Shown here: piece by piece, positions 1,748 to 24,008 of the stretch
How positions within the stretch are numbered: position 1 is the first letter of the stretch
Layout: every line of letters begins with the position of its first letter
Source: Clostridia bacterium
GTDB taxonomy: Bacteria; Bacillota; Clostridia; Christensenellales; Aristaeellaceae
NCBI GenBank assembly: GCA_030526225.1
Contig: JAUNDF010000010.1
Location: 1-32,000, forward strand
DNA: 32,000 nucleotides
Reading direction: 5' to 3'
The notes under the pieces: generated by a model
Databases searched by the model: none
What the model was told of the DNA's origin: nothing
Seen by the model: the letters and a program-made list of their open reading frames with translations, nothing else
Position numbers and translations under genes: made by a program

Positions 1748-3100
1748 ATGAAAAAACATCTCATCGCAACATGTACAATTGTAGTTTTCTCCATCCTGAT
1801 ATTGTCTTCCGTTTGTTTAGCAGACAATGTTGTTAAAGCGTCATTCGTTCATAATGGAATGGAGTTTAAACTATTTTAGAGTGGAACAGCAGAACTTGTA
1901 AAAGTTCGAGATACGCGGTGCGTTAATTTTGAAATACCATCAACAGTAGAAGGATATCTTGTTACAACTATAAATAGCGCTGCTTTTTCAGATTGTAAAT
2001 CATTGGATATATTAATTATTCCGGATTCGGTAAGTTAGATAAATGGAAATCCGTTTGTTGACTGCAAGAATGTTCGATTTAGCATATCCGCACAACATCC
2101 TGCGCTTGCTGTTATCGATGGCGTTTTATTCTCAAAACCGGATAAAAGACTGATTTCGTATCCGGCATGGAAAGATAATAAAACATATGAAGTGCCGGAT
2201 GGAATTGTGACAATTGGTGATTGGGCTTTTGCTTATAATGAAAGATTATCAAGCATTATTCTGCCTAATACTGTAAAAACAATTGGAGAAAAGGCATTCA
2301 TATTTTGCAATAGACTATCTAAGATTAATCTGCCAGAGAGCGTAGAAACCATTGGGATAAATCCATTTTATGGATGCAACAAAGTTGATGTTAAAATAAA
2401 TAGCAAACAAGAGCACTATCTTGTGAAGAGTGGAGTGCTTATTTCAAAAAAAGATAGCAGAATGATTAGCTATCTGCTAGGTTCAACAAAAAAGTCTTAT
2501 TCCATACCTAAAAATGTTGAAGTTATTGGCGAGTATGCATTTTCTTGCAATGGTGACTTAAAGTCGATAGAAATGCCTAATAGCGTTAAAAAAATCTGTA
2601 AAGGTGCTTTTTTGGGATGCTATGATCTTCAAACGATTCGTCTTTCTGCTAACATCGAAATCATTGAAGAATAGCTTTTTTATAGCTGTCGTGAACTGAA
2701 AAGAATTGAAATTCCTCAAGGTGTGAAGGCGATTGGGAAAAGTGCGTTTGAAAATTGTGTATACCTCATAAGCGTAAAAATGCCAAATAGCTTAATATAG
2801 ATAGGAGATAGAGCCTTTGCTAACTGTAGTACCTTAACAAGTGTGAACGTTCCGTGCAATGTTACTACTATTGGATGGCGCGCATTTGAACATTGTACAA
2901 ATTTGGAAGAAATAATGATTCCTAAGAGCGTAAATAAAATAGCCTTCGATGCTTTTAAATATTGCGATAAAATAGTTGTGTATGTATAGCCTGATAGTTA
3001 TGCAGAATATGTCTTGCCACTTTCAGGTATACCTACCAACTATAAGGACACTGAAGTCCCTTTGACGAACTCAAGTGACTTTGGATGGCTTAAATAGTAA
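1748..3100 (+). CDS. Secreted BspA-type leucine-rich-repeat protein (450 codons) containing six in-frame TAG codons. It would be a pseudogene under the standard code.
   Basis: ATG at 1748 with RBS aaggagag. Signal peptide MKKHLIATCTIVVFSILILSSVCLA. About 12 repeats of IPxSVxxIGxxAFxxCxxL. I translated the single frame 1748-3100: the only interruptions are TAG at 1877, 2036, 2672, 2798, 2987 and 3095, and the frame ends at TAA 3098-3100. There are no frameshifts. GC is roughly 33 percent by eye. Confidence 0.6.
1877..1879 (+). other. In-frame TAG (candidate sense codon) in the LRR gene
   Basis: Context ...GMEFKLF[TAG]SGTAELV. In frame with ATG 1748 (offset 129). Confidence 0.55.
2036..2038 (+). 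other. In-frame TAG in the LRR gene
   Basis: IPDSVS[TAG]INGNPF aligns with LPESVETIGINPF of a sister repeat. Confidence 0.55.
2672..2674 (+). other. In-frame TAG in the LRR gene
   Basis: NIEIIEE[TAG]LFYSCRELKRIEIP. The repeat register continues across the codon. Confidence 0.55.
2798..2800 (+). other. In-frame TAG in the LRR gene
   Basis: MPNSLI[TAG]IGDRAFANC aligns with MPNSVKKICKGAFLGC. Confidence 0.55.
2987..2989 (+). other. In-frame TAG in the LRR gene
   Basis: Context KIVVYV[TAG]PDSYAEYV. Confidence 0.5.
3095..3097 (+). other. In-frame TAG immediately preceding the TAA of the LRR gene
   Basis: ...GWLK[TAG][TAA]. It is either a tandem stop or a final sense codon before the true TAA stop. 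Confidence 0.35.
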
Positions 3101-3129
3101 ATAATTGACCGAAATTTATATAAAACCCC

Positions 3130-3158
3130 TTGCATTCCCCGCTCACTTATGCTACAAT
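3130..3158 (+). promoter_or_regulatory. Candidate sigma-A promoter (extended -10) for the BFD/Dabb pair
   Basis: TTGCAT (3130-3135), 17-nt spacer ending in TGc, TACAAT (3153-3158). Confidence 0.5.
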
Positions 3159-3235
3159 AAAGCCAGAAAGAGAGAGAAAGAAAAGGTCACAGGGAGTGAC
3201 CGGAAAATGATGAGAAGGAGGCGATTCCATTGGAT

Positions 3236-3406
3236 ATGGAAGAAACTGTGTGCTTCTGCGCTGACGTGAACGTAGGACAGATAAAGGCTGCTGTGGAAGC
3301 AGGCGCAACCACGGTAGAGGCTGTGGGTGAAGCCACCGGCGCCGGGACCCATTGCGGTGGCTGCCAGGAGCGAATCGCTGAGTTGATCGCGGAGTTCACC
3401 AAGTAA
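3236..3406 (+). CDS. BFD-like [2Fe-2S]-binding domain protein (56 aa; too short for the ORF track)
   Basis: Hand translation gives MEETVCFCADVNVGQIKAAVEAGATTVEAVGEATGAGTHCGGCQERIAELIAEFTK, with the CxC...CxxC pattern of BFD-like domains. GGAGG at 3217-3221. An alternative in-frame TTG start lies at 3230. The TAA stop overlaps the next ATG (TAATG). Confidence 0.65.
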   Translation: MEETVCFCADVNVGQIKAAVEAGATTVEAVGEATGAGTHCGGCQERIAELIAEFTK

Positions 3407-3699
3407 TGAAGCATTGTATTCTGTGCAAGTTTAAACCCGAGGTAAAACAAACAGATTGGCAGGCGATGCTGCCTGACATAGAGAAAATCTTTGATAAAAC
3501 ACTGTCCATCGACGGCGTAGAACAGGTAGAGCTGATAACCAACTGCGTGGATCGCGACAATCGCTATGATTTACTGATTCGCATGACCATGACCCGAGAA
3601 GCCCTGCCGGCTTATGATGCTTGCCCTGCCCATGCCGAGTGGAAAAACAGTTACGGAAATAAGCTGGAAAAGAAAGCCATTTTCGACTACGAAGCTTGA
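3406..3699 (+). CDS. Dabb (stress-responsive alpha/beta barrel) domain protein
   Basis: 97 aa: MKHCILCKFKPEV...DLLIRMTMTREALPAYDACPAHAEWK, a Dabb-like pattern. Translationally coupled to the upstream gene. Confidence 0.7.
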   Translation: MKHCILCKFKPEVKQTDWQAMLPDIEKIFDKTLSIDGVEQVELITNCVDRDNRYDLLIRMTMTREALPAYDACPAHAEWKNSYGNKLEKKAIFDYEA

Positions 3700-3730
3700 A
3701 TGAACCTTTATAACCAAATGACCGACCGAC

Positions 3731-3756
3731 ACGCTCCCGCAAGGGAGCGTTTTTTG
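3731..3756 (+). terminator. Rho-independent terminator
   Basis: acgctccc / gcaa loop / gggagcgt, followed by ttttt. Confidence 0.8.
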
Positions 3757-3787
3757 TATGTATTGCAGAGAAACAGGCTGATTTTGA

Positions 3788-3816
3788 TTGACTGCAGCCG
3801 CCGGAGGTGCTACAAT
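3788..3816 (+). promoter_or_regulatory. Candidate sigma-A promoter (extended -10) for flotillin
   Basis: TTGACT (3788-3793), 17-nt spacer ending in TGc, TACAAT (3811-3816). Confidence 0.55.
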
Positions 3817-3853
3817 AGAAATAGCAAAAAACCGAATACAAGGAGGACTATCC

Positions 3854-5284
3854 ATGGACGGCAATTCTTTTCTGTATTTCCTGTCCCACAATTGGATGTG
3901 GGTGCTGCTGGGGCTGGTTGTGCTCATCATCCTCATCAAATTCATGCCCCGGTACAAAATCGCCCCGCCGGATAACGCGCTGATTATTTCCGGTCTGGTG
4001 CGGCGCAATTACAAGGTGCGCAACCATGACGGCACCGTGCAGAGCAAGCGCTTCGGCTACCGCATCATCCGCGGCGGCGCAACCTTCTTCATCCCGGCGC
4101 TGGAGCGGGTGGACAAGCTGGATATGTGCCTGATGCAGGTGGATATCCGCACGGCCCAGCCGGTGCCCACCAAGGAATACATCCCGGTGTTTGTGGATGC
4201 GGTGGCCAACATCAAAATCGGTTCGGATGACATCGCCATCGCCACCGCCGCAGAGCAGCTGCTGCACTACGATGCCGAGCAGATTAAGACCCTCGCCAAG
4301 GATGTGCTGGAAGGCAACATGCGCGAAATCATCGGCCAGATGACCATCGCGGAGCTGGTGCAGAACCGCGACAAGTTCGCGCAGGAATCCATCAAGGCCG
4401 CCATGACCGACATGAGCAACATGGGTCTGGAAATCATCAACCTGACCATCCAGAACTTCGCCGATGTGGATGGCAAGGTGGTGGATACCATGGCCGTCCA
4501 GAACGTGGTCACCAAGGAGCGCGATGCCGAAATCGCCCGCGCCAAGGCCATGCAGGAGCAGAATCAGGCAAAGGTGGAGGCCGAGGCCATCATCGCCGAG
4601 CAGAACAAGAATCTGGAGATTCAGAAGGCGGCCTACAAGATTGAGCAGGACCAGAAGCGCGCACAGGCCGACCAGGCGTATGACATCGAGAAGGAATCCA
4701 TCCGCAAAAAGTTTGAGACAGAGCATGCCGCGGCCGAGCTGACCAAGCTGCAGAAGCAGACCGAGCTGCAGCGCCAGCAGGTTGAAATCGAGCGTGAGCG
4801 GCTGAATGTGGAAATCCGCGAGAAGGCCAACGCCGAAAAGGATGCCCGCATGGCACAGGCCGAGGCGGACCGCTATGAGCGTCAGGCCAAGGCTGATGCT
4901 GATTTGTATCAGGCCGAGCGCGAGGCGGAAGCCATCCGCCGCAAGGGTGAAGCGGAAGCCGAGGCCATCCGCCTGAAGGCGGAGGCTATGAAGCTGTACG
5001 GTCAGGCCGCCATGCTGGAAATGGTGGTTGACAAGCTGCCCGAGATTGCCCGCAGCGTATCCGAGCCGCTGAGCAAGACGGAGAAGATTATCATGTTCGG
5101 CGAAGGCGGCGCCACCCGCATGGCAAGGGACACCGCCGGTACCATGCTGCAGACCTTCGAGGCTGTGAAGGAAAGCGTGGGCCTTGACATTCCTCAGATG
5201 CTGAAGGATGTGACCACCGGCGGTCTGGTGGGCAAGCAGCCTGCCGGCACCCCCGCAGAGGCCGATGCACCTGCGGCAGAGTAA
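3854..5284 (+). CDS. floT: Flotillin / SPFH-domain protein (FloT/YuaG-like)
   Basis: ATG 3854 lies 7 nt after AGGAGG (3841-3846). N-terminal TM helix, SPFH/band-7 region, and a long Ala/Glu/Gln/Arg-rich coiled-coil (flotillin repeats). Stop TAA. Confidence 0.88.
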   Translation: MDGNSFLYFLSHNWMWVLLGLVVLIILIKFMPRYKIAPPDNALIISGLVRRNYKVRNHDGTVQSKRFGYRIIRGGATFFIPALERVDKLDMCLMQVDIRTAQPVPTKEYIPVFVDAVANIKIGSDDIAIATAAEQLLHYDAEQIKTLAKDVLEGNMREIIGQMTIAELVQNRDKFAQESIKAAMTDMSNMGLEIINLTIQNFADVDGKVVDTMAVQNVVTKERDAEIARAKAMQEQNQAKVEAEAIIAEQNKNLEIQKAAYKIEQDQKRAQADQAYDIEKESIRKKFETEHAAAELTKLQKQTELQRQQVEIERERLNVEIREKANAEKDARMAQAEADRYERQAKADADLYQAEREAEAIRRKGEAEAEAIRLKAEAMKLYGQAAMLEMVVDKLPEIARSVSEPLSKTEKIIMFGEGGATRMARDTAGTMLQTFEAVKESVGLDIPQMLKDVTTGGLVGKQPAGTPAEADAPAAE

Positions 5285-5304
5285 GCAATTGAACAGATAA
5301 GCGC

Positions 5305-5338
5305 AGGGGCTGTGATTGATTTTCACAGCCCCTGTTTC
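5305..5338 (+). terminator. Terminator hairpin after flotillin
   Basis: aggggctgtga (5305-5315) / tcacagcccct (5323-5333) followed by gtttc. The T tract is weak. Confidence 0.6.
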
Positions 5339-5374
5339 AACCTTCTCCGTCACGGCAAAGGCAATGGAACGCAA

Positions 5375-5401
5375 CAAAAAAAGAGTGGCCGAAGCCACTC
5401 T
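5375..5401 (-). terminator. Rho-independent terminator of the minus-strand gene 5415..6101
   Basis: agagtggc / cgaa loop / gccactct, preceded by an A-run on + (a T-run on -). Confidence 0.65.
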
Positions 5402-5414
5402 GATTGTCGGTCAA

Positions 5415-6101
5415 TTACTTGACGAAGAAAAGCTCAATGCCCATCAGCTCGCAGCGGGCCATGCCGTCTGCCAGCAGCTGGATGCCGTAGGTCATGGTTT
5501 CGTCGCCGACGGACACGGTCTTGGTCAGTTCGCCGTCCTTCAGCTCGTAGGCGCCGTCATCGTTGCCCATCATGGTGACATTGCCGTTGTCGATGACCAT
5601 GGTCATGTCTTCGCCGAACATGTCCTTCAGCTCAGCGGGGTCGGCCGTGGCCAGATCGATATACATGCCGCCAAAGCCCATCTTGCACATGGTCCAGGTG
5701 CCGTTGAAGGCGGTGATGTCATCGGTGCTTACCTTTTCGGCAGGCACGAAAGCGGCGGCGGGGGGCTCGTGGGTGAAAATCAGGGAAGTGCCTTCCTCTT
5801 CCATGACAAGGGTATCGCCGTCAACGGTGAATTCCTGTACGGAATCGCCGATGGTCACGGTTACCTTGCCGTCAGCCTCGGCCCAGCTGCAGTCGGCAGA
5901 TTCGCCCATGACGGTGGCGGCACCGGTGCCGTCTTCCTTCAGGTCAAAGGACATTTCCATGCCCAGGTCACCCGGGTTCATGGCTGCACCGGAAGCACTG
6001 ATGGTGTTGAGATACCATACGCCGGGAACGCCCTCAGCCACGGCAGCCACAGTGCACAGCAGCATCATAACGGCCAGCAGAACAGATACAAGCTTCTTCA
6101 T
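5415..6101 (-). CDS. Secreted hypothetical protein with two internal lipocalin-like repeats
   Basis: The start was moved to the internal MKKLVSVLLAVMMLLCTVAAVAEG signal peptide (ATG at 6099-6101 on -, with aaggagg upstream). Stop TAA. No family was recognised with confidence. Confidence 0.65.
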   Translation of the reverse strand: MKKLVSVLLAVMMLLCTVAAVAEGVPGVWYLNTISASGAAMNPGDLGMEMSFDLKEDGTGAATVMGESADCSWAEADGKVTVTIGDSVQEFTVDGDTLVMEEEGTSLIFTHEPPAAAFVPAEKVSTDDITAFNGTWTMCKMGFGGMYIDLATADPAELKDMFGEDMTMVIDNGNVTMMGNDDGAYELKDGELTKTVSVGDETMTYGIQLLADGMARCELMGIELFFVK

Positions 6102-6290
6102 TGTGTTTTCCTCCTTCACAGGTTGGATGATATCAATCAAGCCTTTTTCAGGCCGTGATTCGGAGAATATGGTTTGATTGGTTGATTTTTCCATTCGCTT
6201 TCGGTATATTGATTATAGCAGAGAAAACGACAGTTCACCAGTGCAATAATGGAGTGAATATCAACCGGATACAACAAAGGAGGGATTCCC

Positions 6291-7178
6291 GTGAAATTCA
6301 GAAAAGCATTGTCGATGCTTTTGGCTATGCTGATGCTGGCCTGCGCCCTGCCCGCGATGGCAGACACCCCCCTGGCGGATTGCTTTGATGCCCAGCAGAC
6401 GCTGCTGTTTTCCACCACCAACGTGGCCCTGCAGGTGGATGCGGAATTCGCGCTGGATGACGTGGCCTTCAAGCATGCAACACTCACCCACCGGCAGGAC
6501 CTGAACGATTCCGTGCGGGAGCTGGTGATGGAAACGCCCATGAAGGACGGCACCACCCTGCGCAGCGGCTTTACGGTGGTGACCTTCGCCTCCGAGACCA
6601 CCGCCTATGAGAGCGGCTTCATCGTCCGGCAGTACGAAACCTATCCGGGCAAGTTCTCCATCCTGCGGCCGCGGATTTGGTCCGATGCGCTTTTGCCGGT
6701 GCTTCGGGCAGCCGTCAAGCAAATGGAAGCATCATTGGGGGACGGCGTACAGGTCACGGTCAGGAGCGACGGCAGCCGGGTCATCCATGTGGAGGTCGGG
6801 GAAAAGGATGTGCCGGAGACCATGAACGGTCTTGTGACCCTGCTGGCCCTGCATGCGGCGGAAAAGTACACCGGCACCAGCGTGATGACCATGTCCTCCG
6901 CCATCATGCCGGAGATGAGCAGCTTTGCCACCATTGCCGACGGGCTGGTGTACTGCACCAAGTCTCTGCGAATCATCTCTGCCGCGGGAGACATCACCCT
7001 TGATGAATACGGCAATCTGACCGAATGCAAGGGCAATGTACTGCTGCTTTTGCAGGAGAAAAACGGCATGCTTCACGAGCTGTCCGTCACCTTTACAGAA
7101 ACGGCGGATGAGTACGGCTTTGTCAGCATTCCCCGGGATAATCCGGCAAAATACAACACATGGTTTCCGGCAGATTAA
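6291..7178 (+). CDS. Secreted hypothetical protein
   Basis: GTG start after aaaggaggg. Signal peptide MKFRKALSMLLAMLMLACALPAMA. The ORF has the coding-like composition of its neighbours. Stop TAA. Confidence 0.65.
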   Translation: MKFRKALSMLLAMLMLACALPAMADTPLADCFDAQQTLLFSTTNVALQVDAEFALDDVAFKHATLTHRQDLNDSVRELVMETPMKDGTTLRSGFTVVTFASETTAYESGFIVRQYETYPGKFSILRPRIWSDALLPVLRAAVKQMEASLGDGVQVTVRSDGSRVIHVEVGEKDVPETMNGLVTLLALHAAEKYTGTSVMTMSSAIMPEMSSFATIADGLVYCTKSLRIISAAGDITLDEYGNLTECKGNVLLLLQEKNGMLHELSVTFTETADEYGFVSIPRDNPAKYNTWFPAD

Positions 7179-7191
7179 TCAGACAAAAACA

Positions 7192-7219
7192 AGCGCCGCC
7201 CTTTCGGACGGCGCTCTTT
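7192..7219. terminator. Hairpin between convergent genes (possibly a bidirectional terminator)
   Basis: agcgccg..cc / tttc loop / gg..cggcgct, flanked by aaaaaca on the left and ctttgt on the right. Confidence 0.55.
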
Positions 7220-7238
7220 GTATGCGCGGAATATGGGA

Positions 7239-8972: not shown

Positions 8973-9069
8973 TGGTTCTTCCTCCTTATCATACAGGAAA
9001 GATTTCATTACGATAAAAGTATAACAATCTCCGCCCAAGGGGTGAAATTCATTTTTATCATTATTACTA

Positions 9070-9097: not shown

Positions 9098-9178
9098 AGA
9101 GACAAATGACGCAGGAAATGGCCGGAAACGGCGTTTTTGACGGATTTCCCAAGGGGATTATGCGGAGGATAAGGCAAA

Positions 9179-10102: not shown

Positions 10103-10108
10103 TGCGGT

Positions 10109-10171: not shown

Positions 10172-12424
10172 TTGGAGCATGTGTAGGCCGGTGTCACCGG
10201 GACCATCTATCGCAATGAGGACAACGGGTATACTATCCTGACTGCCCGGGCCGGGCGCAGCGAAATCACCGTGGTGGGGACGCTCCCTGCCCTGTCCCCG
10301 GGGGAGCAGTGCGTGTTCCATGGCGACTGGGTGGAGCATCCGCAGTATGGGCGGCAGCTGAAGTGCACGGGCTGTGAAATCAAAAAGCCCACCACCCTGC
10401 TGGGCATTGAGCGGTATCTGGGCTCGGGGCTGATTCGCGGCGTGGGCCCTTCCACCGCCAAGCAGATTGTGGAAACCTTCGGCGAGGAAACGCTGACCAT
10501 CCTCAGCGAGCATCCGGAGCGGCTGCAGGAGGTCCCCGGCATGGGGCGCAAGCGCTGGCGGGTGATTGCGGAAAACTTTCAGGAGCAGAACGCCATGCGG
10601 GAATCCATGGTGTTTCTGCAGTCCTACGGCATTTCCCCCAACCTGTCGGTAAAAATCAGCCGGCTGTACGGCGACAGGACCGCCGATGTGATTAAAAACA
10701 ACCCCTACCGCCTTTGCGAGGATTTGGAAGGCGTGGGCTTTCAGACGGCGGACCGCATCGGCATGGCCATCGGCATTGCCGCGGACAGCGAGTTCCGCAT
10801 CCAGTCGGCGCTGAAGTACATGCTGCGGGAGGCCTCCGTCTCCATGGGCCATGTGTATCTGCCCCTGCGGGAGCTGGTAACGAAAACCGCCCAGCTGCTG
10901 CGCACGGAGGAGGCGCTGGTATCCCGGCAGGTGAAAACGCTGATGCTGCGGCGGGACATCATCTGCAAGCAGGAGGAGGGCGAGGAGGACATCCGCGTGT
11001 ATCTCGCCGCCTTTGACAGCGCCGAGAGCGAGGTGGCCAAGCGCCTGTGCGAGCTGATTGCCTCCCTTGCCCGGGAAGAAAACCCCCAGGCGGAGCAGGA
11101 CATCGACCGGTTTGAAAAGCGCCACGGCATCCACTTTTCCGCCCAGCAGAGAAAGGCCATCACCATGGCCATGGAGATGGCCCTGAAAAACCAGATCGTG
11201 GTGATTACCGGCGGCCCCGGCACCGGCAAAACAACGATTATCAACTGCATCATCTCCCTGCTTTCGCGCGATGGGGAGGTGAAGCTGTGCGCCCCCACCG
11301 GCCGCGCCGCCAAGCGCATGACATAGGCCACCGGCGTGGAGTCGAAGACCATCCACCGCCTGCTGGAATACGGCGGGGACGACGGCGCCTTTGCCCGGGA
11401 TCAGGATAACCCCATCGAGGGCGACTGCGTGATTGTGGACGAGACCTCCATGGTGGATTTGATGCTGATGCGCTCCCTGCTGCGGGCCATTGAGCCGGGG
11501 ACAAAGCTGATTCTGGTGGGCGATGCCGACCAGCTGCCCAGCGTGGGCGCGGGCAATGTGCTGGGGGATATCCTCGACAGCGGCATTGTGCCTGTGTGCC
11601 GCCTGACGGACATCTACCGGCAGGATGAACAGAGCCGCATTGTGGTCAATGCCCACCGCATCAACCGCGGAGAAATGCCCCTGCTCAACGAAAAGGGCAC
11701 GGATTTCTTCTTCGAGCGCAAGGATTCCTTTGCCCAGACGGCCCAGACCATTGTGCAGCTGATGACCAAACGGCTGCCCGCGTTTTTGAAATTCCCGGAG
11801 GATGAAACTGCGGACCGCGCCGTCCGGAGCATACAGGTGCTGGCACCGGCGAAAAAGGGCGAGTGCGGCGTTCTGGTGCTCAACACCATGCTGCAGGAAG
11901 CCCTCAATCCCCCCGCGGCGGACAAGCCGTTTATCAAATACGGCGAAACCATCTTCCGCCTTGGGGACAAGGTGATGCAGACCAAAAACGACTACCAGAT
12001 TGAGTGGCGCAAGGAAAGCCGCCTTGGCTGGGAGGACGGCAAGGGCGTGTTCAACGGCGACGTGGGCTACATCACTGCGGTGGATGAGGAGGAGCACTGC
12101 CTCACGGTCCTCTTTGATGAGGAAAAGGAAGTGGTGTACCAGTCCGCTCAGCTGGAAAATCTGGATCTGGCCTACTGCCTGTCGGTGCACAAGAGCCAGG
12201 GCAGCGAGTTCCCGGTGGTGATTATGCCCGTGGTGGGCGGCTCCAGCATGCTTTTGACCAGAAACCTGTTCTACACCGCCCTGACCCGTGCGCGGAGTCT
12301 GGTGGTGCTGGTGGGCCGGGAGGAAATCATCCGGCAGATGACGCAGAACAATCACATTCAGAAGCGGTACACCTCTCTGGCAGGGCGGCTGCGCATGATG
12401 GGTGCGCTGCTGCCCAAAGAGTGA
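10172..12424 (+). CDS. recD2: RecD2-type ATP-dependent DNA helicase (750 codons) with two in-frame TAG codons
   Basis: TTG 10172 lies 9 nt after aaaaaggagg. The N-terminal GTIYRNEDNGYTIL motif lies between TAG 10184 and the first standard-code start. HhH region, Walker A ITGGPGTGKTT, APTGRAAKRMT[TAG]ATGVESKTIHRLL, and helicase motifs through SVHKSQGSEF. ORFs 10271..11326 and 11336..12424 share one frame. Stop TGA. Confidence 0.8.
10184..10186 (+). other. In-frame TAG (candidate sense codon), recD2 codon 5
   Basis: ttg gag cat gtg TAG gcc ggt gtc acc ggg acc atc tat cgc aat gag gac aac ggg. The conserved N-terminal peptide follows it. Confidence 0.55.
11324..11326 (+). other. In-frame TAG in recD2, at a position that is Glu in RecD2 homologs as I recall them
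   Basis: GRAAKRMT[TAG]ATGVESKTIHRLL, compared with the family pattern GRAAKR(L/M)(S/T)E.TG..A.TIHRLL recalled from memory. Confidence 0.65.
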
Positions 12425-16020: not shown

Positions 16021-16419
16021 ATGGCGCGGGAAAACCGCATCACCCTGTGTCTGCCGGGGCAGGCCGATCATTCACTGGTGCTTCGCACCATGGTAGGCGG
16101 CGTGGCCTATCTGTATGACCTGAGCGTGGATGACATGGATGATCTTCGCGCCGCCGCGGATGAGGCCTTCGACTGCCTGCTGCATCAGGGCAGCACGGTG
16201 GAAAGCATCACCACCGACATTCTCCGGGAGGATGGCCGCGTATCAGCATTGCTGACGGCTGCCTTCGGGGAAAAGCAAACATCCGCCCCCGGCGAAGAGG
16301 AGAACGAAATCTCGCTGGCGGTACTGAAAACCATCATGCCCGATGTACAGCTGACCGTGGACGGGGAGGGCCGGATTGCGGCCATCCGCCTGACGCTTTC
16401 CACCGGGAGGGCATCATGA
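16021..16419 (+). CDS. Small SpoIIAB/RsbW-like anti-sigma-factor-like protein with a degenerate ATPase N-box
   Basis: ATG 16021 lies 8 nt after GGGAGG. AADEAFDCLLHQG resembles the anti-sigma kinase box E-A-x-x-N-A-x-x-H-G, but Cys replaces the Asn. The stop overlaps the sigma-factor start (ATGA). Confidence 0.45.
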   Translation: MARENRITLCLPGQADHSLVLRTMVGGVAYLYDLSVDDMDDLRAAADEAFDCLLHQGSTVESITTDILREDGRVSALLTAAFGEKQTSAPGEEENEISLAVLKTIMPDVQLTVDGEGRIAAIRLTLSTGRAS

Positions 16420-17144
16420 TGGAAGAAGACATCAATGCCCTGCTGGCAGGGTATGCCCGTGCACCGGAGCCGGAGACGCTGAACCGGCTGACGGAGCATT
16501 TTCTGCCCCTGTCGCGGCAGGTGGCGGCCAAATTCTATGGGCGCGGTGCCGAAATGGAGGATTTGCGGCAGGTGGCAGCCATGGCGCTGATGAACGCCAT
16601 CAAACGCTTCGACCCTGACAAGGGGGTCAAGTTTACCACCTTCGCCGTTACCACCATGGCGGGTGAGGTGCGCAACCACCTGCGGGACAAGGCCGCGCTC
16701 ATTCGCCCCTCCCGTGATTTGCGGGAAAAGGCGGCGCAGGTGAACAAAATCACCGACCGGCTGGCCCAGCAGCTGCTGCGGGAGCCTACCGTGCGTGAAA
16801 TTGCCGGCGAAATGAACATCACCCCCGATGAGCTGCTGCACATCCTCGACAGCCGGGAAAAGCTGGAGGTTGCCTCCCTGAACGAAATCTCCGGGGAGGA
16901 TGACCGCGCCCTTGAGGAGCGGCTTGGTCAGACCGACGGCGGCTACGAGGCCGTGGAGCAGCGGGACATGTGGCAGTGGATTATGCGCCAGCTGACCGGG
17001 CAGGAGCAATTGCTGGTCCGGCTGCGTTATGTATAGCGGATGGGTCAGCGGGAGTGCGCCGCCAGAATGAACCTGTCGCAAATGCAGGTCAGCCGCATGG
17101 AGCGGCGCATGCTGGCGCGCATCCGCAGCAAAATGACATCATAA
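16416..17144 (+). CDS. Group-3 sigma-70 family factor (SigF/SigG/SigB-like, 242 aa) with one in-frame TAG before region 4.2
   Basis: Region 2 (DLRQVAAMALMNAIKRFDPDKGVKFTTFAVTTMAGEVRNHLRD), region 3, then LLVRLRYV[TAG]RMGQRECAARMNLSQMQVSRMERRMLARIRSKMTS. The region 4.2 HTH is encoded only after the TAG. Stop TAA at 17142-17144. Confidence 0.8.
17034..17036 (+). other. In-frame TAG (candidate sense codon) in the sigma factor
   Basis: cgt tat gta TAG cgg atg ggt cag. The HTH follows in the same frame. Confidence 0.65.
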
Positions 17145-17174
17145 ACAAGGATTGAAACCAAGGAGCGTGAAAGG

Positions 17175-18392
17175 ATGTACAGAGAAACACCGCCGATGGC
17201 ACCGCAGCCGAGGAAGAAGCTGCATGCTGTGCAGATTGTCATCATCGTGGTGGCCGTGCTGTTTGCCCTGTGGTACCTGTACAAAACCCTGGTGCCGGCG
17301 GCAACGCCCTATGCCACCATACAGGCAGGCACCCTGGGTGCAAGATACTCCGGCGATGTGCTCATCGTCCGGGATGAGACCCCCTATGATGCCGAGGGCG
17401 TGAGCAGCATCGAGTATGTGGCGGAGGAGGGCAAGGTGGCCCGCAACCGCTCCACCATCTGCAATGTGTTCTCCACCGGTTATTCCACCAAGGAGACCAC
17501 CGCCCTGCAGAACTACCGCGACCAGATCAAGCAGTATCAGCTGCAGCTCATCGGCGAGGAAACCACCTACGATGCCCGCATGGAGCGGCTGGACAGCGAT
17601 GTTTTGTAGCTGGCCCGGGAATTCCGCGCCATGATTGCCGGTCAGCCCGGCAATTTGCTCAATCAGGAAACGCTGCTCAATGCCGCCATCGGCTCCCGTC
17701 AGCTGTATCTGAAGAAAAAGTACGGCTCCGACCAGCGCCTCAGCCGGTTGTATGACGACGAACAGAGCCAGCTGCAGCGCATTGCCAGCTGGACCAAGCA
17801 GTATACCGCCGCGGGCGAGACCATCGTCAGCTTTTATACCGACGGCTATGAATACGGCCTGACCGCCTCCAACTTCCGTGATTTTACCCCGCAATAGGTC
17901 CGGAAGATGATTGCCGGTCAAAAGCCGGAGCTGACCACGGCCCAAAAGGGCAAGACCACCATCTACCGCACCGTGCGTGACGGCGTGTGGTACGCGCTGA
18001 TGCTGGTGAAGGACTCCACATGGAATCCGGTGGAGGGCCAGACCTACGAGCTGAAGCTGGAGCGGGTGGAAAACACCCGTGTGCTGGCCACGGTGGAATC
18101 CTTTACAAGAAACGGCAATGAGCTGCTGGTGCGCCTTGTGGTGCATGACTCCGTGGAGCCGGTGCTGTACATGCGCACCTGTCAGGCAGAGCTGGGCGAT
18201 TATGTGCAGAGCCTGATGGTGCCCAAGCGCGCCATCTATACCCAGGACAACATGACCGGCGTGGTGGTGCTGGACGGTGCCAATCAGCTGTTTGTGCCGG
18301 TGAACATCCTTTTGGAGGACGGCGGCAATGTGTACATCTCCGCCATCACCCAGGGTCTGCTGTATGAAGGGCAGACCGTGATGCTGTTCTGA
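17175..18392 (+). CDS. HlyD-like membrane-anchored protein (405 codons) with two in-frame TAG codons
   Basis: N-terminal TM anchor (VQIVIIVVAVLFALWYLY). ORFs 17175..17609, 17631..17897 and 17907..18392 are in one frame, separated only by TAG codons. Beta-barrel-like C-terminus. The family call is from general resemblance only. Stop TGA. Confidence 0.6.
17607..17609 (+). other. In-frame TAG in the HlyD-like gene
   Basis: Context RLDSDVL[TAG]LAREFRAMIAG. Confidence 0.5.
17895..17897 (+). other. In-frame TAG in the HlyD-like gene
   Basis: Context NFRDFTPQ[TAG]VRKMIAGQKPEL. Confidence 0.5.
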
Positions 18393-18429
18393 TGCGGCAT
18401 ATCTCAAGCAGGAAGGAAGGTCTTTGCGG

Positions 18430-19134
18430 ATGGAACTGAACCGGGAGCAGATTGCCCAGCGGTACGAGGAAATTTGCGCGGAGGTACAGCAGCTGGCGGA
18501 TGAAAGCGGCTATGCTGTGCCCAAAATCGTTGCGGTCACCAAGACCCATCCCCTGGAGACCATTTTGCCCATCCGGGAGCTGGGCATCCGTGAGGTGGGC
18601 GAGAACCGGGTGCAGGAAATTATGGAAAAACTGCCTGCGCTGGAAGAAAATTTTCAGATTCACCTGATTGGAAGGTTGCAATCCAATAAAGTTAAATATA
18701 TAATAAACCATGTATGCCTTATTCATTCTGTGGACAGGCTCAGCCTTGCGCAGGAGATTGACCGCCAGGCCCAAAAGGCCGGAAGGCGGATGCCTGTGCT
18801 TGTTCAGGTGAGCCCCGCAGGGGAAGAGCAGAAGGGCGGCATCCCTCCCGAGGAGACGGAGGCCTTCCTTCGGCAGCTGGCACAATTGCCCGGCCTTGAT
18901 GTGCGCGGGCTGATGGCTGTGATGCCAAAATCAGAGGATGAAGCGTACCTGTCGGGGCTTTTTGCCGATATGCGTGCGCTGTTTGAGCGTCTTCGGGACG
19001 AAAACATAGAGGGGATTACCATGGAGGAGCTTTCCATGGGCATGTCCGGCGATTACCGGCTGGCCGTGCGCCATGGCGCAACCATCATCCGGGTGGGCAG
19101 TGCGCTCTTCGGGCCCCGGGATTATTCCGTGTGA
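18430..19134 (+). CDS. yggS: YggS/YlmE-family pyridoxal-phosphate homeostasis protein
   Basis: VAVTKTHP (Lys of the PLP site), GENRVQE, HLIGRLQSNKVK, SMGMSGDY, IRVGSALFG. An alternative TTG start lies at 18424. Stop TGA. Confidence 0.9.
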   Translation: MELNREQIAQRYEEICAEVQQLADESGYAVPKIVAVTKTHPLETILPIRELGIREVGENRVQEIMEKLPALEENFQIHLIGRLQSNKVKYIINHVCLIHSVDRLSLAQEIDRQAQKAGRRMPVLVQVSPAGEEQKGGIPPEETEAFLRQLAQLPGLDVRGLMAVMPKSEDEAYLSGLFADMRALFERLRDENIEGITMEELSMGMSGDYRLAVRHGATIIRVGSALFGPRDYSV

Positions 19135-19156
19135 TTGTGTGTAGGGGGTAAACGAA

Positions 19157-20356
19157 TTGTCTTTTAAGGATTGGAAACAACAGCTTGCATCCAGGCTGCG
19201 CGGCAAGGGCGCACAGCAGCAGGAGGAAGACCGGTTCTCCGGCTCCTTCAGCGGCTATCATCCTGCCGGCAACCGGGATATGTACGATACATCCCGCATG
19301 GCTGCCCAGCAGCAGGAGCCCCAGCAGGCGGCCTATCAGCCCCAGCAGGAGATGAACGGCATGATGCCCGAGCAGGGCTATGCCCCTCAGATGCAGGGCT
19401 ATACCTGGCAGCAGCAGGCACAGCAGATGAACATGCCGCCCGTGCCCCAGCAGACAACATGGCAGCCCCAGCAGGAGATGCGCCAGCAGACCTCCTCCTG
19501 GCAGACGGCATGGCAGCCCCGTCAGGAGCAGCCCGCCCCCGAAGCGGCAGGCCGCCAGAATCAGCCCCGGCAGGACAACATCAGCTACCTGAATGTCAAC
19601 TTCACCGGCAGTGACGGCCGCGGCTATGTGGGCGTGGAGCGCGCCGTGCTTTTGGCCGGCATCAGCGACTGCAACCGCGTGATTGAATACATGCGCAACA
19701 ACGAGTCGGTCATCCTGAACATGGATAACATCGCCGACGACAAGGAAGTGCAGCGCTGCCTGGATTTCGTATCCGGTGCCGCCTTCACCCTTGAATATAC
19801 CGTCACCAAGCTGAGCCGCAGCAAGCGCATCTACATGCTGTCCCCTGCGGTGATTCTGGTGCTGACCGATGCCGGCATGGCCAACTGGAAGACCGGTGCC
19901 GATGCCCAGCCCCTGCGCGAGCAGGCAGAGGAAAGCCGCGCATGGACCGAGCAGCCCGCCTACGGTGACCGCCGCGCCGCCTATGAAGCACCCTATGCCC
20001 AGCAGAGCTACGGCAATGCTCAGGGCTACACCGCCCGCCAGTCCTATGAGGACATGCAGCAGGGCTACACCATGCAGCAGAGCTATGGCCAGCAGGGCTA
20101 CACGGCCCAGCAGCCCTATTACGATATGCAGCAGGGCTATACCGCCCAGCAGCCCTACTATCAGCAGGGCTATACCATGCAGCAGCCCGCCTATGAGCAG
20201 TATGCCCAGCCCCAGATGACCTTCGGTCAGGTGGCAGCCGTACCGCCCTACAGCACCGGCAGTGTGGATGTATCCGGCGCCGCACCCCGCAGCGCCTATG
20301 ATTCCGATACCCGCCGCGGCTTCTACGGCACGGCGCAGACCCAGCTTGCCCGATAA
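19157..20356 (+). CDS. sepF: SepF-domain cell-division protein with long Gln/Tyr-rich low-complexity extensions
   Basis: Central SepF-like core (VLLAGISDCNRVIEYMRNNESVILNMDNIADDKEVQRCLDFVSGAAFTLEYTVTKLSRSKRIYMLSP). Positioned between yggS and yggT as in Firmicutes division (dcw) clusters. TTG start 8 nt after GGGGG. Stop TAA. Confidence 0.72.
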   Translation: MSFKDWKQQLASRLRGKGAQQQEEDRFSGSFSGYHPAGNRDMYDTSRMAAQQQEPQQAAYQPQQEMNGMMPEQGYAPQMQGYTWQQQAQQMNMPPVPQQTTWQPQQEMRQQTSSWQTAWQPRQEQPAPEAAGRQNQPRQDNISYLNVNFTGSDGRGYVGVERAVLLAGISDCNRVIEYMRNNESVILNMDNIADDKEVQRCLDFVSGAAFTLEYTVTKLSRSKRIYMLSPAVILVLTDAGMANWKTGADAQPLREQAEESRAWTEQPAYGDRRAAYEAPYAQQSYGNAQGYTARQSYEDMQQGYTMQQSYGQQGYTAQQPYYDMQQGYTAQQPYYQQGYTMQQPAYEQYAQPQMTFGQVAAVPPYSTGSVDVSGAAPRSAYDSDTRRGFYGTAQTQLAR

Positions 20357-20368
20357 GGGGGTGGCCTG

Positions 20369-20644
20369 ATGCTGCTGTTGATGCGCATTCTCCGCATGGC
20401 ACTGCTGGTGTATGAGCTGCTGCTCATCGCCTATGTGCTGCTCAACTGGCTCAAGCCCGCCGCCAACCGCTGGACGGAGCTGCTCCGCCGCGTGACCGAG
20501 CCGGTGCTCACGCCCCTTCGGGTGGCCATTGTTTCCCGGCTGCCGGCAAGGTATCAGCCCATTGACTGGTCCCCTGTGGCGGCACTTGCGATTTGTGAAA
20601 TCATCGGCTGGATTCTCGGCAGAATCGCCGCCATTTTCGCATGA
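20369..20644 (+). CDS. yggT: YggT/YlmG-family membrane protein
   Basis: 91 aa with two TM helices. VYELLLIAYVLLNWL...TEPVLTPLR is typical of YggT. The stop overlaps the ylmH start (ATGA). Confidence 0.85.
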   Translation: MLLLMRILRMALLVYELLLIAYVLLNWLKPAANRWTELLRRVTEPVLTPLRVAIVSRLPARYQPIDWSPVAALAICEIIGWILGRIAAIFA

Positions 20645-21390
20645 TTAAGGATACTGCACAGCAGCTGAAGCTGCGGCTGAATCAGCTGGCCCAGCGGGCC
20701 GACAGGCTGTACTGCGCTGTCCCCGGCCGCTTTCTGGCGGCAGAGGAGCAGGCCATGGCACAGGATGCCGCCCGGGATAACGGGGTGGATGTATCCTTTT
20801 GCGGCGGCTGGAGTGATGCATAGCGGGTGCAGGTGTGCTTTCATCCCTTCGGGGAGGAGCCGCTGTTTACCGCCCAATGGGTGGAAGCCAAATGGAACAG
20901 CCGCTTTTCCACCGCGGCCCACAGCGATTTGCTGGGGAGCCTGATGGCCCTTGGCATGGAGCGTGCCTTTCTGGGCGACATCATCGTTGAGGAAGGCCGG
21001 GCACTGGTCTGCGTGATGCCCGAGCTGGCGGCTCGTCTGCCGGTGGAATGGACAAGCGCGGGACGCACGCCCATCTGGGTATCGGTGCTGGGCAGCCCGC
21101 CTGAAATTGCCCCGCCTGAAGGGAAGCAGCTGCGCGACACAGTGCCGTCCCTGCGGCTGGACTGCGTGGTGGCAAGCGGCATGAAGCAATCCCGCACCAA
21201 AGCGGCATAGCTGATTCGTCAGGGGCTGGTGATGGTCAATCATCGCCCGTAGGAACGCTGTGACCGGCTGCTGCAGGAGGGCGCACTGGTATCCATCCGC
21301 CATTTCGGCAGAATCCGTCTGCTGGAGGTGGGGGAACCCACCCGCAAGGACCGGCTGCCCGTGGTGCTGGAAATATTCGCGAAGAAATAA
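20641..21390 (+). CDS. ylmH: YlmH-like S4-domain RNA-binding protein (249 codons) with three in-frame TAG codons
   Basis: GGWSDA[TAG]RVQV matches the YlmH GGY..AER motif. The S4 domain reads LRLDCVVASGMKQSRTKAA[TAG]LIRQGLVMVNHRP[TAG]ERCDRLLQEGALVSIRHFGRIRL. All segments share one frame. Stop TAA at 21388-21390. Confidence 0.75.
20821..20823 (+). other. In-frame TAG in ylmH at the conserved Glu of GGY..AER
   Basis: GGWSDA[TAG]RVQVCFHP, compared with B. subtilis YlmH GGYDRAERKRA (recalled from memory). Confidence 0.65.
21208..21210 (+). other. In-frame TAG in the ylmH S4 domain
   Basis: Context SRTKAA[TAG]LIRQGLVMVN. Confidence 0.6.
21250..21252 (+). other. In-frame TAG in the ylmH S4 domain
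   Basis: Context VNHRP[TAG]ERCDRLLQEGALVSIRHFGR. Confidence 0.6.
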
Positions 21391-21433
21391 TTAAATCCAC
21401 ATAAACGGCCCAACAAGAAAGGAGATTTTCACC

Positions 21434-21913
21434 ATGCAGGTTACCATTGAAATGATTGAGAGCAAAGAGTTTGATTTTGTTCCCCAGGGCTACAAGCCCG
21501 AGCAGGTGGATGAGTTCCTGGATGACATCATTGACGAAATGATTAACATGCAGGATGAAATCCGCGATCTGCAGGGCAAGCTGGCCGCAGCCAACGCCGC
21601 CCCCAAGGCCGCTCCCGTGGCTGCAGAGCCCCGCGCCACCGATACCAACACCGCCGCCTTCCGCGAGATTCTGGAAATGGCACAGCGCGTGAAGGACGAA
21701 ACCATCACCAAGGCACAGACCGAGGCTGATGCCATCGTGGCCAAGGCCAACGAACAGGCCAAGGCACAGCTGGGCAGCCTGATGGAAGACAAGGCCAAGC
21801 TGGAAAAGCAGGTGGCCGCCCTGAAGGAAGCCGCCTCCGCTTACCGTGCCAACTTCGAGGCACTGCTGGCCGCCCAGCAGGATGCCATCGAAAAGGCCAC
21901 CGATCTGTTCTGA
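21434..21913 (+). CDS. divIVA: DivIVA-domain cell-division protein
   Basis: IESKEFDFVPQGYKPEQVDEFLDDI is the DivIVA N-terminal lipid-binding domain, followed by a coiled coil. Stop TGA. Confidence 0.9.
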   Translation: MQVTIEMIESKEFDFVPQGYKPEQVDEFLDDIIDEMINMQDEIRDLQGKLAAANAAPKAAPVAAEPRATDTNTAAFREILEMAQRVKDETITKAQTEADAIVAKANEQAKAQLGSLMEDKAKLEKQVAALKEAASAYRANFEALLAAQQDAIEKATDLF

Positions 21914-21921
21914 TGCTTCAA

Positions 21922-21952
21922 GACCTCTGCCCGCTGCGGCAGGGGTCTTTTT
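21922..21952 (+). terminator. Rho-independent terminator after divIVA
   Basis: gacctctgcc / ggcaggggtc stem followed by ttttt. Confidence 0.75.
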
Positions 21953-22068
21953 CCATGCACGCAGGCAGGAAAAATGGGGCTTTGCATCGAATAGCATAAA
22001 TTGGATGAGTATCGTCCGTTGAATCCTGCAAATGCACATGATGGTTCATCATAGAAAAGAGGTATTTT

Positions 22069-23169
22069 ATGGCAGACAAGCAGCAGACAACCTGCCCCCG
22101 CGTGGATATCGGCGGTCAGGCAGTGATGGAAGGCGTGATGATGAAGGGCCCCGATGCCATCGCCATCACCGTCAGACGGCCCGATGGCTCCATGGCCGTG
22201 CGCTATGAGCCCTATGTGGCCCTGAGCAAAAAGCACAAGTGGATGGGCTGGCCCGTCATCCGCGGCGCCGTGAACATGGCCAACATGCTGGTCATGGGCA
22301 TGCAGACGCTGGAAACCTCCACCAAGATGCTGGGCATCATGGATGAGGAGCCCACCAAGTTTGAAAAATGGCTGGCAGAGAAGCTGGGCAAGGGCATCGA
22401 CAAGGTGGTCATGGGCATGGCCATGATTCTGGCCGTGATTCTGTCCGTGGGCCTGTTTATCCTTGTGCCCACCGCCGTGGAAAAGGGCATCATTGCCTGG
22501 ACCGGCTCCACCACCGCCGCAACGCTGGTGGGCGGCGTTGTGAAGATTCTGCTGCTCATCGGCTACATGATTTTCTGCGGCATGGTGCCCGATGTGCGCC
22601 GCACCTTCCAGTACCACGGTGCCGAGCACAAGACCGTGTACTGCCACGAGCATGACCTGCCCCTGACCCCCGAAAACGCCAAGGGCTTCACTACCCTGCA
22701 CCCCCGCTGCGGCACCGCATTTTTGCTGATTGTGTTCGTCATCTCCATTCTGATGACGCTGCTCATCGGCCGGGGCATCACCGTGTTTATCTGGCGGTTC
22801 CTGTTCCATCTGGCCATGCTGCCGGTGATTGCAGGCGTCAGCTACGAGGTGCTGAAGGGTCTGGCCCACAGCGACAGCAAGCTGGCCCGTGCGCTCCGCT
22901 GGCCCGGACTGCAGATGCAGCGCCTGACCACCCGCGAGCCCGACGAAAAGATGCTGGAATGCGCCATCGTTTCCATGAATGTGGCCCTGTACGGCCTGCC
23001 CAAAAATGCGCCCAAGAACCGGGACGGCTTCACCATCCTGCACAGCTACAAGGAATCCGAAAAGGGCTATGTGTTTGAAAAGCCCGAGGTGAAGCCGGTT
23101 GCGGAAGCAGCTGAAGCTGTTGCCGAAGAAGCAGATGAAGAAGCGCCTGTTCAGGAGCCCCAGGCATGA
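22069..23169 (+). CDS. DUF1385-family membrane protein (commonly a prmC neighbour)
   Basis: IGGQAVMEGVMMKG...YHGAEHKTV...HPRCGT are hallmarks of DUF1385. The stop overlaps the prmC start (ATGA). Confidence 0.85.
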   Translation: MADKQQTTCPRVDIGGQAVMEGVMMKGPDAIAITVRRPDGSMAVRYEPYVALSKKHKWMGWPVIRGAVNMANMLVMGMQTLETSTKMLGIMDEEPTKFEKWLAEKLGKGIDKVVMGMAMILAVILSVGLFILVPTAVEKGIIAWTGSTTAATLVGGVVKILLLIGYMIFCGMVPDVRRTFQYHGAEHKTVYCHEHDLPLTPENAKGFTTLHPRCGTAFLLIVFVISILMTLLIGRGITVFIWRFLFHLAMLPVIAGVSYEVLKGLAHSDSKLARALRWPGLQMQRLTTREPDEKMLECAIVSMNVALYGLPKNAPKNRDGFTILHSYKESEKGYVFEKPEVKPVAEAAEAVAEEADEEAPVQEPQA

Positions 23170-24008
23170 CACCCAGACAGCTGATTCGCGAAACGGCGAA
23201 GCAATTTCAGGCGGCGGGTGTGCCCGATGCCCTGCTGGATGCATCCCTGCTGCTGGCCCACCTGACCGGCATGGAGCCCATGGCCCTGCGGCTGGATGAG
23301 GATACACAGCTGGCGGAGGACATCCTCCGGCAATACGCACAGCTGGCCCGGCGCCGCTGTCAGCGCGAACCCTTGCAATATCTGACCGGGGAAGTTGTCT
23401 TCCTCGGTCGTGTTTTCCATGTGGACAGCCGCGTGCTGATTCCCCGGCCCGAAACGGAGCTGCTGGTGGAATTAGCCGCATCAGAGCTGAAAAAGCACGG
23501 TGCGGGTGCCAAGGCCCTTGACCTGTGCTGCGGCAGCGGCTGCATCGGCGTATCCCTTGCACTATAGGTGCCGGGGAGCGAGGTGCATCTGTCCGATTTA
23601 TCTGCCGATGCACTGGCGGTGACCGGCATCAACGCCGAAGCCCTTGCGGCAAAGGTACAGCTGCATCACGGCGATATGTTTGCGCCGCTGGAGGGTGAAC
23701 GGTTCCACGTGCTGGTGTCCAATCCGCCGTATATCCCCGCGGAGGATTGCCGTCAGCTGCAGGCAGAGGTCCTGCGGGAGCCCATGACCGCCCTTGACGG
23801 CGGCGAGGACGGGTACGATTTCTACCGCACCATCGCAAAGGAAGCGCCCCGTCATCTGCTGCCCGGCGGTGCCCTCTTTCTGGAGATCGGCTGGGATCAG
23901 GCCGAAGGGGTGTGCCGCCTGCTGAGGGAAGCCGGCATGGTGCAGGTGACAAGCCATCAGGACTACAACGGCATTAGCCGCATGGTGGAAGCCCACATGG
24001 CTGATTGA
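23166..24008 (+). CDS. prmC: Release-factor glutamine N5-methyltransferase PrmC/HemK (280 codons) with one in-frame TAG
   Basis: EPLQYLTGEVVFLGRVFHVDSRVLIPRPETE, SAM motif DLCCGSGCIGVSLAL[TAG]VPGSEVHLSDLS, and the catalytic NPPY (VSNPPYIP), which lies downstream of the TAG. ORFs 23166..23567 and 23568..24008 share one frame. Stop TGA. Confidence 0.8.
23565..23567 (+). other. In-frame TAG (candidate sense codon) in prmC
   Basis: gca cta TAG gtg ccg ggg. It aligns with the E of E. coli PrmC ALASERPDCEI (recalled from memory). Confidence 0.62.

Follow-up and report, generated by a model that had tools for sequence, protein, structure and literature searches.

We analysed a 32-kb stretch of DNA (hereafter the window: positions 1 to 32,000 of contig JAUNDF010000010.1 in assembly GCA_030526225.1, a metagenome-assembled genome, or MAG, of a Clostridia bacterium), in which TAG codons stand inside otherwise intact genes. 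Our main finding is that UAG has probably (we put it at about 80%) become a rare glutamate codon, and is no longer a stop, in this Christensenellales/Aristaeellaceae-like gut bacterium; this would constitute a new bacterial code accompanied by the loss of release factor 1 (RF1, the product of prfA). A first-pass annotation, made from the letters of the DNA alone, had claimed general use of UAG as sense in a bacterial chromosome. The claim is supported here by glutamate-conserved alignment columns at the TAG sites, by chromosomal synteny and by the loss of prfA from its operon.

In-frame TAG codons interrupt six intact genes

When open reading frames (ORFs) were re-called with TAA and TGA as sole stops, six genes that are split under translation table 11 fused into single frames, each with a full-length Pfam architecture (Table 1). 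Together they hold 15 in-frame TAGs, are free of in-frame TAA and TGA and show no frameshift, exactly as the first-pass annotation had reported. Its remark that conserved motifs lie 3' of the TAGs was also borne out, with Pfam domains either crossing the TAGs or following them. The Pfam architecture of the RecD2 helicase is complete, AAA_19/AAA_30, SH3_13 and UvrD_C_2 spanning or following its two TAGs, and the S4 domain of YlmH is placed likewise. In the sigma factor, Sigma70_r2, r3 and r4 are all present, and Sigma70_r4 (amino acids 190-237) crosses the TAG at residue 207; the MTS domain of PrmC (residues 105-194) likewise crosses the TAG at residue 134, with the NPPY motif 3' of it. A BspA-type leucine-rich-repeat (LRR) gene comprises 450 codons of AT-rich sequence free of TAA and TGA, and its LRR_5 match (E=8e-84) spans the TAGs. 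It also contains the only TAG at a gene end, which directly precedes a TAA, as had been pointed out. About one core gene in five of the window carries a TAG, and TAG makes up 9 of the 652 Glu-type codons of core genes (~1.4%), or roughly 1 per 1000 codons.

We considered whether these TAGs could be sequencing, consensus or base-calling errors, or whether the six genes could be pseudogenes in a degenerating genome. The MAG does come from a single run, and erroneous in-frame TAGs do arise in low-coverage contigs, one of which (L142) is described below. Errors or decay, however, are hard to reconcile with 15 in-frame stops that are all TAG and with their placement at codons that are Glu in relatives. 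The TAG sites have no flanking motif in common, which rules out a methylation or base-calling motif as their cause. An independent assembly gave the same sequence: three Logan contigs assembled from SRR24915835 (L001, L082 and L168; 1.6-3.7 kb, inside the window) match the window with 100% identity and reproduce the TAGs at 1877 and 2036 (L168) and at 23565 (L082), together with the junction between prmC and sua5. In addition, two more species from other datasets combine a prfA deletion with sense TAGs, which occur on both strands. We therefore regard artefact or gene decay as having a next to negligible probability.

The window is a piece of bacterial chromosome and not of a phage, because it contains division-cluster and housekeeping genes and is syntenic with a standard-code MAG, GCA_017516645.1 (Aristaeellaceae/Christensenellales; L165), its nearest syntenic standard-code relative. 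Collinearity with L165 extends over recD2-comF, GNAT-lysC-tauE and the sigma-hlyD-yggS-sepF-yggT-ylmH, divIVA block, in agreement with the earlier statement that this is not a stop-recoded phage.

TAG positions correspond to glutamate

Homologs were gathered for each TAG-bearing core gene and the aligned columns were scored. The three TAG columns of YlmH are occupied by Glu in 120/120, 113/120 (the others being Asp) and 118/120 homologs, and Gln occurs no more than once among the 120 in any of them. At RecD2 site 11324, Glu is found in 87 of 103 representatives and also in the structures of D. radiodurans RecD2 and E. coli RecD. It is the top residue at RecD2 site 10184 (42/103) as well as at PrmC site 23565, where 34 of 78 relatives have Glu, followed by Ala (10), Asp (8) and Gly (7). 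The column at HlyD site 17895 is divided between Asp (62) and Glu (52) among 120 homologs, and at sigma factor site 17034 PDB 8x6g_H has Glu and 1l0o_C has Lys. Log-odds scores summed over eight sites came to +21.5 bits for Glu, -6.9 for Asp and -16.3 for Gln.

The codons of L165 at the eight TAG positions of recD2, sigma factor, hlyD and ylmH are GAG (five), GAA (two) and GAC (one): GAA and GAG in recD2; GAG in the sigma factor gene; GAC and GAG in hlyD; GAG, GAG and GAA in ylmH. By a rough estimate that takes Glu as ~7% of residues, seven Glu codons out of eight would be met by chance at ~1e-7. These comparisons predict that UAG is a glutamate codon in this genome.

They also bear on two other ways of reading UAG. 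Glutamine, inserted through phage code 15 or a supE-like tRNA-Gln(CUA), and pyrrolysine, as in Pyl-decoding archaea and bacteria, are candidates in so far as these two reassignments of UAG are known from prokaryotic systems; glutamine is moreover chemically near glutamate and is a minority residue at some columns (11/103 at RecD2 11324). The negative Gln score, the three columns that are 94-100% Glu, and the fact that L165 has GAG or GAA (in one case GAC) but never CAG or AAG nevertheless make this reading highly improbable. Against pyrrolysine in particular, Pfam assigned no gene of the window to pyl or methylamine methyltransferase (mtt/mtb/mtm) functions, and it is housekeeping genes that carry the TAGs.

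The second possibility is that RF1 was lost and no dedicated tRNA exists, so that UAG is read slowly by near-cognate tRNAs and the TAGs are tolerated, mildly deleterious mutations, as in engineered RF1-knockout E. coli. The rarity of TAG in core genes and the absence of a tRNA(CUA) from the sequence examined would fit such a state. Near-cognate reading of UAG, however, inserts chiefly Gln, Tyr, Lys or Trp, not Glu, and random nonsense mutations would also hit CAG, TGG, TAC, AAG and similar codons, whereas the TAGs stand nearly all at Glu columns (seven of eight when judged by L165). The six TAGs among the 450 codons of the LRR gene imply efficient decoding, and the pattern recurs in three species. 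We consider this explanation very unlikely.

prfA is missing from its operon

The DUF1385 gene was used as an anchor for gathering related loci (L002-L162) from genomes and metagenomes. In these relatives, DUF1385 and prmC are followed by a gap of ~1.1 kb and then by sua5. Among the 91 loci holding both prmC and sua5, the gap (1.07-2.2 kb) encodes RF1 in 88; in L004, for example, the product is an RF1 of 352 aa that bears the PVT and GGQ motifs. The three loci without prfA between prmC and sua5 are L082 (the window's own Logan contig), L083 and L144. When taken between the ends of high-scoring segment pairs, the spacer measures 34-47 bp in the window, L083 and L144. Because the 30-bp spacer of the window resembles the prfA-sua5 intergenic region of relatives, we conclude that prfA was excised cleanly. 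Its neighbour prmC was kept despite this loss.

A search for RF1 had been proposed in the first-pass annotation. Besides the loss of prfA from its operon position, tblastn of RF1 against the whole 32-kb window gave no match (best E=1.1). The loss is confined to exactly the three loci with sense TAGs, and prfA is present at this site in all 88 others. The deletion adjoins, but falls outside, the region that the first-pass annotation had flagged; that annotation had also assigned no amino acid to UAG.

Two other lineages combine prfA loss with sense TAGs

L083 (R14__coassemble_417) and L144 (R28__coassemble_162) come from separate metagenome assemblies and represent species distinct from that of the window, their DUF1385 proteins being 72% and 65% identical to the window's, respectively. 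L144 contains at least four in-frame TAGs, distributed over both strands, in sua5, a TetM/EF-G-like GTPase gene and two other genes. The TAG column in sua5 is Glu in 82 of 85 relatives, and the TAG in the GTPase gene corresponds to the conserved Glu of 'DTPGHxDFxAEV'. L083 has at least one sense TAG, within murD. None of the TAG sites is shared among the three lineages. The TAG of prmC in the window is GAA in L083 and GAG in L144, and reciprocally the TAG of sua5 in L144 is GAG in both the window and L083. Such interchange between TAG and GAR (GAA or GAG) is the behaviour expected of synonymous codons.

In-frame stops across loci were counted by homology; counts based on composition only were too noisy and were inflated by adjacent genes in the same frame. 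As a control, the same three genes (DUF1385, prmC and sua5) in ~155 RF1-containing loci yielded a sole in-frame TAG, in L142 (1525-2493, DUF1385). This locus was rejected as a fourth lineage: the change is TGG to TAG beside a 12-bp deletion, on a human-gut contig of 1.8x coverage with RF1 present, and represents an ordinary error or a pseudogene. RecD2 matches of ~380 aa, taken up as possible further TAG-split genes, proved to be contig-end fragments. Two loci with divergent Sua5 genes, L163 and L164, were uninformative or standard as further lineages; L164 has an RF1 C-terminus upstream of sua5. In L163 (ERZ27234641 k141_336871), a relative of L144 with 84% identical Sua5, a gene with a YkuD domain replaces prmC upstream of sua5.

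A neighbour-joining tree of DUF1385, PrmC and Sua5 paired L083 with L144, and the window fell into a clade next to theirs whose resolution is weak. It is quite likely that at least three uncultured Christensenellales/Aristaeellaceae-like gut species share the code, which would then be the first natural bacterial code with UAG as sense (Glu) and RF1 lost; it possibly arose more than once. The window's species is known from a single sample. No Sua5 relative between 77% and 100% identity to the window's was present among 5.8 billion proteins, the closest relatives in genome and metagenome scans were at most 76% identical, and the MAG is outside the GTDB r232 species representatives scanned. Large code screens may have missed such genomes because GTDB does not use them as species representatives, and the splitting of genes at TAG may lower MAG quality scores.

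TAG terminators are rare in the nearest RF1-containing species

The stops of the 31 coding sequences of the window are 17 TAA, 14 TGA and 0 TAG. This reproduces the counts of the first-pass annotation, although the inference drawn from them is weak, as sister species hardly use TAG stops. Two additional small genes (3232-3397 and 3406-3699), perhaps passed over in that annotation, stop at TAA and TGA, in line with the tally. In L083 and L144, 0 of ~25 genes end in TAG, so that none of ~55 ORFs over the three loci is TAG-terminated. Over all relatives, TAG ends 10.3% of ORFs. In the RF1-containing sister species, which form the clade nearest the window (L004-L026, L034, L039, L080, L086, L115, L125 and L147), it ends 9 of 277 (3.2%). 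Against this 3.2% rate, the absence of TAG stops from the window, L083 and L144 has P values of 0.16-0.36. The tally of 0/31 therefore proves little. It appears instead that TAG stops had been nearly abandoned before RF1 was lost. TAA, the main terminator (17/31 genes), never occurs in frame.

The LRR gene lies on a low-GC island

The LRR gene stands alone on an island of low GC content (window 1560-3200; 23-38% GC compared with ~60% for the window). Its Glu-type codons comprise 20 GAA, 4 GAG and 6 TAG (TAG 6/30), and its TAG density of 13 per 1000 codons is ~13 times that of core genes. This suggests that the gene evolved in a low-GC gene pool with sense TAG, for example in phages or mobile elements of the lineage, and may point to a broader set of mobile genes that use TAG as sense, for instance those of phages adapted to these hosts. 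Compared with gut phage proteins, its product is only 25-30% identical. In the Logan collection, the LRR gene was called across two TAGs as one 242-aa product (L168 887-1612, equal to window 1748-2473); the contig is short and AT-rich, and the gene caller had apparently switched to an alternative code for it.

A possible mechanism, and points that weigh against it

We propose that termination would proceed through UAA and UGA alone. RF1 would be absent genome-wide, UAG would terminate nothing, and RF2 would serve both UAA and UGA, with prmC retained for the methylation of RF2. UAG would be decoded by a dedicated tRNA(CUA). Most likely this would be a second copy of tRNA-Glu(CUC) in which C36 has changed to A and which glutamyl-tRNA synthetase (GluRS) still charges. 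Bacteria of the Firmicutes make Gln-tRNA by an indirect pathway, and the tRNA may alternatively derive from tRNA-Gln(CUG), being charged by a non-discriminating GluRS and not amidated by GatCAB. Under the dedicated-tRNA scheme, new TAGs would arise from GAG by a single G-to-T change that is effectively synonymous. Such changes fit the unshared, reciprocal TAG/GAR pattern of the three lineages. The prior near-loss of TAG terminators (~3% of genes) would have eased the change along a route near codon capture: since the clade had almost dropped TAG terminators, losing RF1 and capturing UAG would have been least costly there.

A rival to the scheme is that prfA was relocated and RF1 still competes with an efficient suppressor tRNA-Glu(CUA), UAG being Glu or stop according to context. 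Only 32 kb of the genome is in view, the prmC/sua5 neighbourhood is rearranged in L163, and the low usage of TAG, 1 per 1000 codons, is what would be expected early in a reassignment. On the other hand, prfA is gone from its conserved site in just the three sense-TAG loci and in 0 of the 88 others, and 0 of ~55 ORFs of the three loci end in TAG. Moreover, TAGs in about a fifth of the core genes, among them the probably important prmC, ylmH, sigma factor and recD2, could hardly persist if RF1 were active. Ambiguous UAG is thus unlikely, and we favour UAG as a glutamate codon with RF1 lost.

Several observations weigh against the favoured reading. The entire case is sequence-based. The absence of RF1 was seen at the syntenic site and in the 32-kb window only; as at least one relative (L163) has a rearranged operon, prfA may lie in another part of the genome. 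ARAGORN and Rfam found no CUA-anticodon tRNA in the window or in the L083 and L144 loci; across the 162 loci, ARAGORN found neither such a tRNA nor a tRNA-Glu, and the L083 and L144 loci are without any tRNA. One of the nine comparable sites, HlyD 17607, is no Glu column (Ser 62, Ala 21, Asp 16, Thr 16, Glu 3). The TAG sites of the LRR gene fall at variable repeat positions, where read-through is visible and the inserted residue is not identifiable; they are silent on glutamate. The lack of TAG stops among the 31 window genes has, alone, P~0.36 at the sister rate. Lastly, the Logan contigs may share the MAG's reads and exclude assembler artefacts but not sample-specific ones, a point covered by L083 and L144, which come from other datasets.

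Gene content of the window

The window is ~60% GC and densely coding, mainly on the + strand. Gene products across it were assigned with Pfam, except where Table 1 states otherwise. The Sua5 product is identical to NCBI MDO4483377.1, a record named 'MAG: Clostridia bacterium'. The partial gene at the start of the window probably encodes a secreted or anchored protein. SepF proteins are usually ~150 aa long, and that of the window is far above this size at 399 aa, with Gln/Tyr/Pro-rich low-complexity extensions flanking the SepF domain on both sides. The SepF of L165 is likewise long (482 aa).

Table 1. Features of the window, with genes carrying in-frame TAGs listed first
Feature	Position	Strand	In-frame TAGs	Remarks
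BspA/LRR_5 surface-protein gene	1748-3100	+	1877, 2036, 2672, 2798, 2987, 3095	Stop TAA at 3098
recD2 helicase gene	10172-12424	+	10184 (codon 5), 11324 (codon 385)	TTG start; Pfam
SigF/G-type (SigF/G-like) sporulation-like sigma factor gene	16416-17144	+	17034	TAG within region 4; Pfam
HlyD_2-family membrane protein gene	17175-18392	+	17607, 17895	Pfam HlyD_2, amino acids 13-389
ylmH	20641-21390	+	20821, 21208, 21250	S4-domain RNA-binding protein of the division cluster; Pfam YlmH_RBD, S4
prmC	23166-24008	+	23565	Release-factor glutamine methyltransferase; Pfam PrmC_N, MTS
prmC-sua5 spacer, RF1 deletion scar	24009-24038	+		30 bp; ~1.07-kb prfA at this place in relatives
DUF1385 gene	22069-23169	+		Pfam DUF1385, E=9e-77; opens the DUF1385-prmC-prfA-sua5 operon
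sua5/tsaC	24039-25091	+		Pfam Sua5_yciO_yrdC and Sua5_C; directly 3' of prmC
Partial gene	2-661			Begins with PTAE/PT repeats; no further Pfam domain
tRNA-Thr(GGU)	825-900			Sole tRNA of the window (ARAGORN, Rfam)
Small gene, BFD-like protein with [2Fe-2S]-type Cys motif	3232-3397			Ends in TAA; identified by eye
Small gene, Dabb-like protein	3406-3699			Ends in TGA; identified by eye
sepF	19157-20356			399 aa
Flotillin, FAD/FMN reductase, LysR regulator, comF, GNAT acetyltransferase, lysC, tauE				Pfam
Division-cluster tail: yggS, sepF, yggT, ylmH, divIVA				Pfam
dut, rsmA, CoA-transferase, nrdG/nrdD				Pfam

Significance

If UAG does specify glutamate here and RF1 is lost, Bacteria would gain a new translation table. 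Codon capture and an ambiguous intermediate could be tested against each other in a natural system, with the sister species, which retain prfA and end 3% of genes in TAG, serving for comparison. RF1 knock-outs with a freed UAG underlie synthetic genomically recoded organisms, and a naturally evolved pair of CUA-tRNA and GluRS, combined with RF2-only termination, would be of interest to synthetic biology. The gut would also harbour a conflict of codes between phages and hosts, as phages with TAG as Gln and hosts with TAG as Glu would misread each other. For annotation, the problem is that table 11 splits about a fifth of the window's genes or turns them into pseudogenes, a probable source of bias in MAG quality scores and in the choice of genomes for reference sets.

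Comparison with known codes

The first-pass annotation had held that general UAG usage of this kind was undescribed in a bacterial chromosome, and this matches the literature searched to August 2026. In that literature we found no case combining UAG-only reassignment, glutamate, Bacteria and RF1 loss, and no description of a natural RF1-less bacterium. The combination is not among the cases of Shulgina & Eddy 2021, the 2026 Actinomycetota UGA paper, the 2026 gTranslate preprint or the phage recoding literature, and a search pairing the family name with genetic codes found nothing. The natural bacterial stop reassignments described there all involve UGA and RF2, and UAG reassignment is described for phages (Gln) and archaea (pyrrolysine) alone.

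Translation tables 4 (UGA as Trp; Mycoplasmatales, Hodgkinia, Zinderia and some Eggerthellaceae) and 25 (UGA as Gly; Gracilibacteria and Absconditabacteria) follow the logic proposed for the window, in which one stop of a bacterial chromosome becomes sense, its sole release factor is lost and the other factor serves the two stops that remain (PMC8629427, PMC13462651). In both, as in the window, the in-frame codons align with columns where one residue is conserved. The window differs in its codon (UAG, not UGA), in the factor apparently lost (RF1, not RF2) and in the residue (Glu). It also belongs to a high-GC (~60%), apparently not reduced genome of a free-living gut anaerobe.

Phage code 15, found in crAss-like, Lak and other gut phages, resembles the window in that TAG is sense in gut DNA and standard gene callers split genes at TAG. 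Those phages, however, carry their own suppressor tRNA, infect standard-code hosts and read TAG as Gln, whereas here the setting is chromosomal, the residue is Glu and the host prfA is deleted at its site. Neither Gln columns (-16.3 bits) nor a phage replicon was found in the window, and its synteny is that of housekeeping genes.

Pyrrolysine codes provide a further comparison. Some archaea are reported to read UAG as pyrrolysine genome-wide (Kivenson et al. 2025, cited after the gTranslate preprint). In this archaeal code and in conditional bacterial pyrrolysine decoding, UAG is likewise not (only) a stop and TAG terminators are depleted. Pyrrolysine decoding depends on pylTSBCD, the residue inserted is derived from lysine, and archaea have a single aRF1 and no dedicated RF1 to lose; in the window, by contrast, the TAGs align with Glu, pyl and mtt/mtb/mtm genes are absent, and the loss of a dedicated RF1 gene from its operon is visible.

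The same amino acid is assigned to UAG in the nuclear codes that read UAR (UAA and UAG) as Glu, those of peritrich ciliates (table 30) and of Blastocrithidia nonstop, through tRNA-Glu with UAR-cognate anticodons (PMC12153298). There, UAA and UAG change jointly and eRF1 is modified, not lost. The window belongs to a bacterium with separate RF1 and RF2 and keeps UAA as a stop, since TAA ends 17/31 genes and is never in frame.

The state that the window appears to have reached resembles that of engineered RF1-deficient E. coli (C321.deltaA, RFzero-type strains and 'Ochre'), in which prfA is deleted, UAG is freed for a CUA suppressor tRNA and RF2 suffices (PMC4434889, PMC11903333). Whereas those are laboratory constructs whose TAG stops were replaced by design, the state of the window apparently arose by natural evolution, TAG stops having already dropped to ~3% in its clade.

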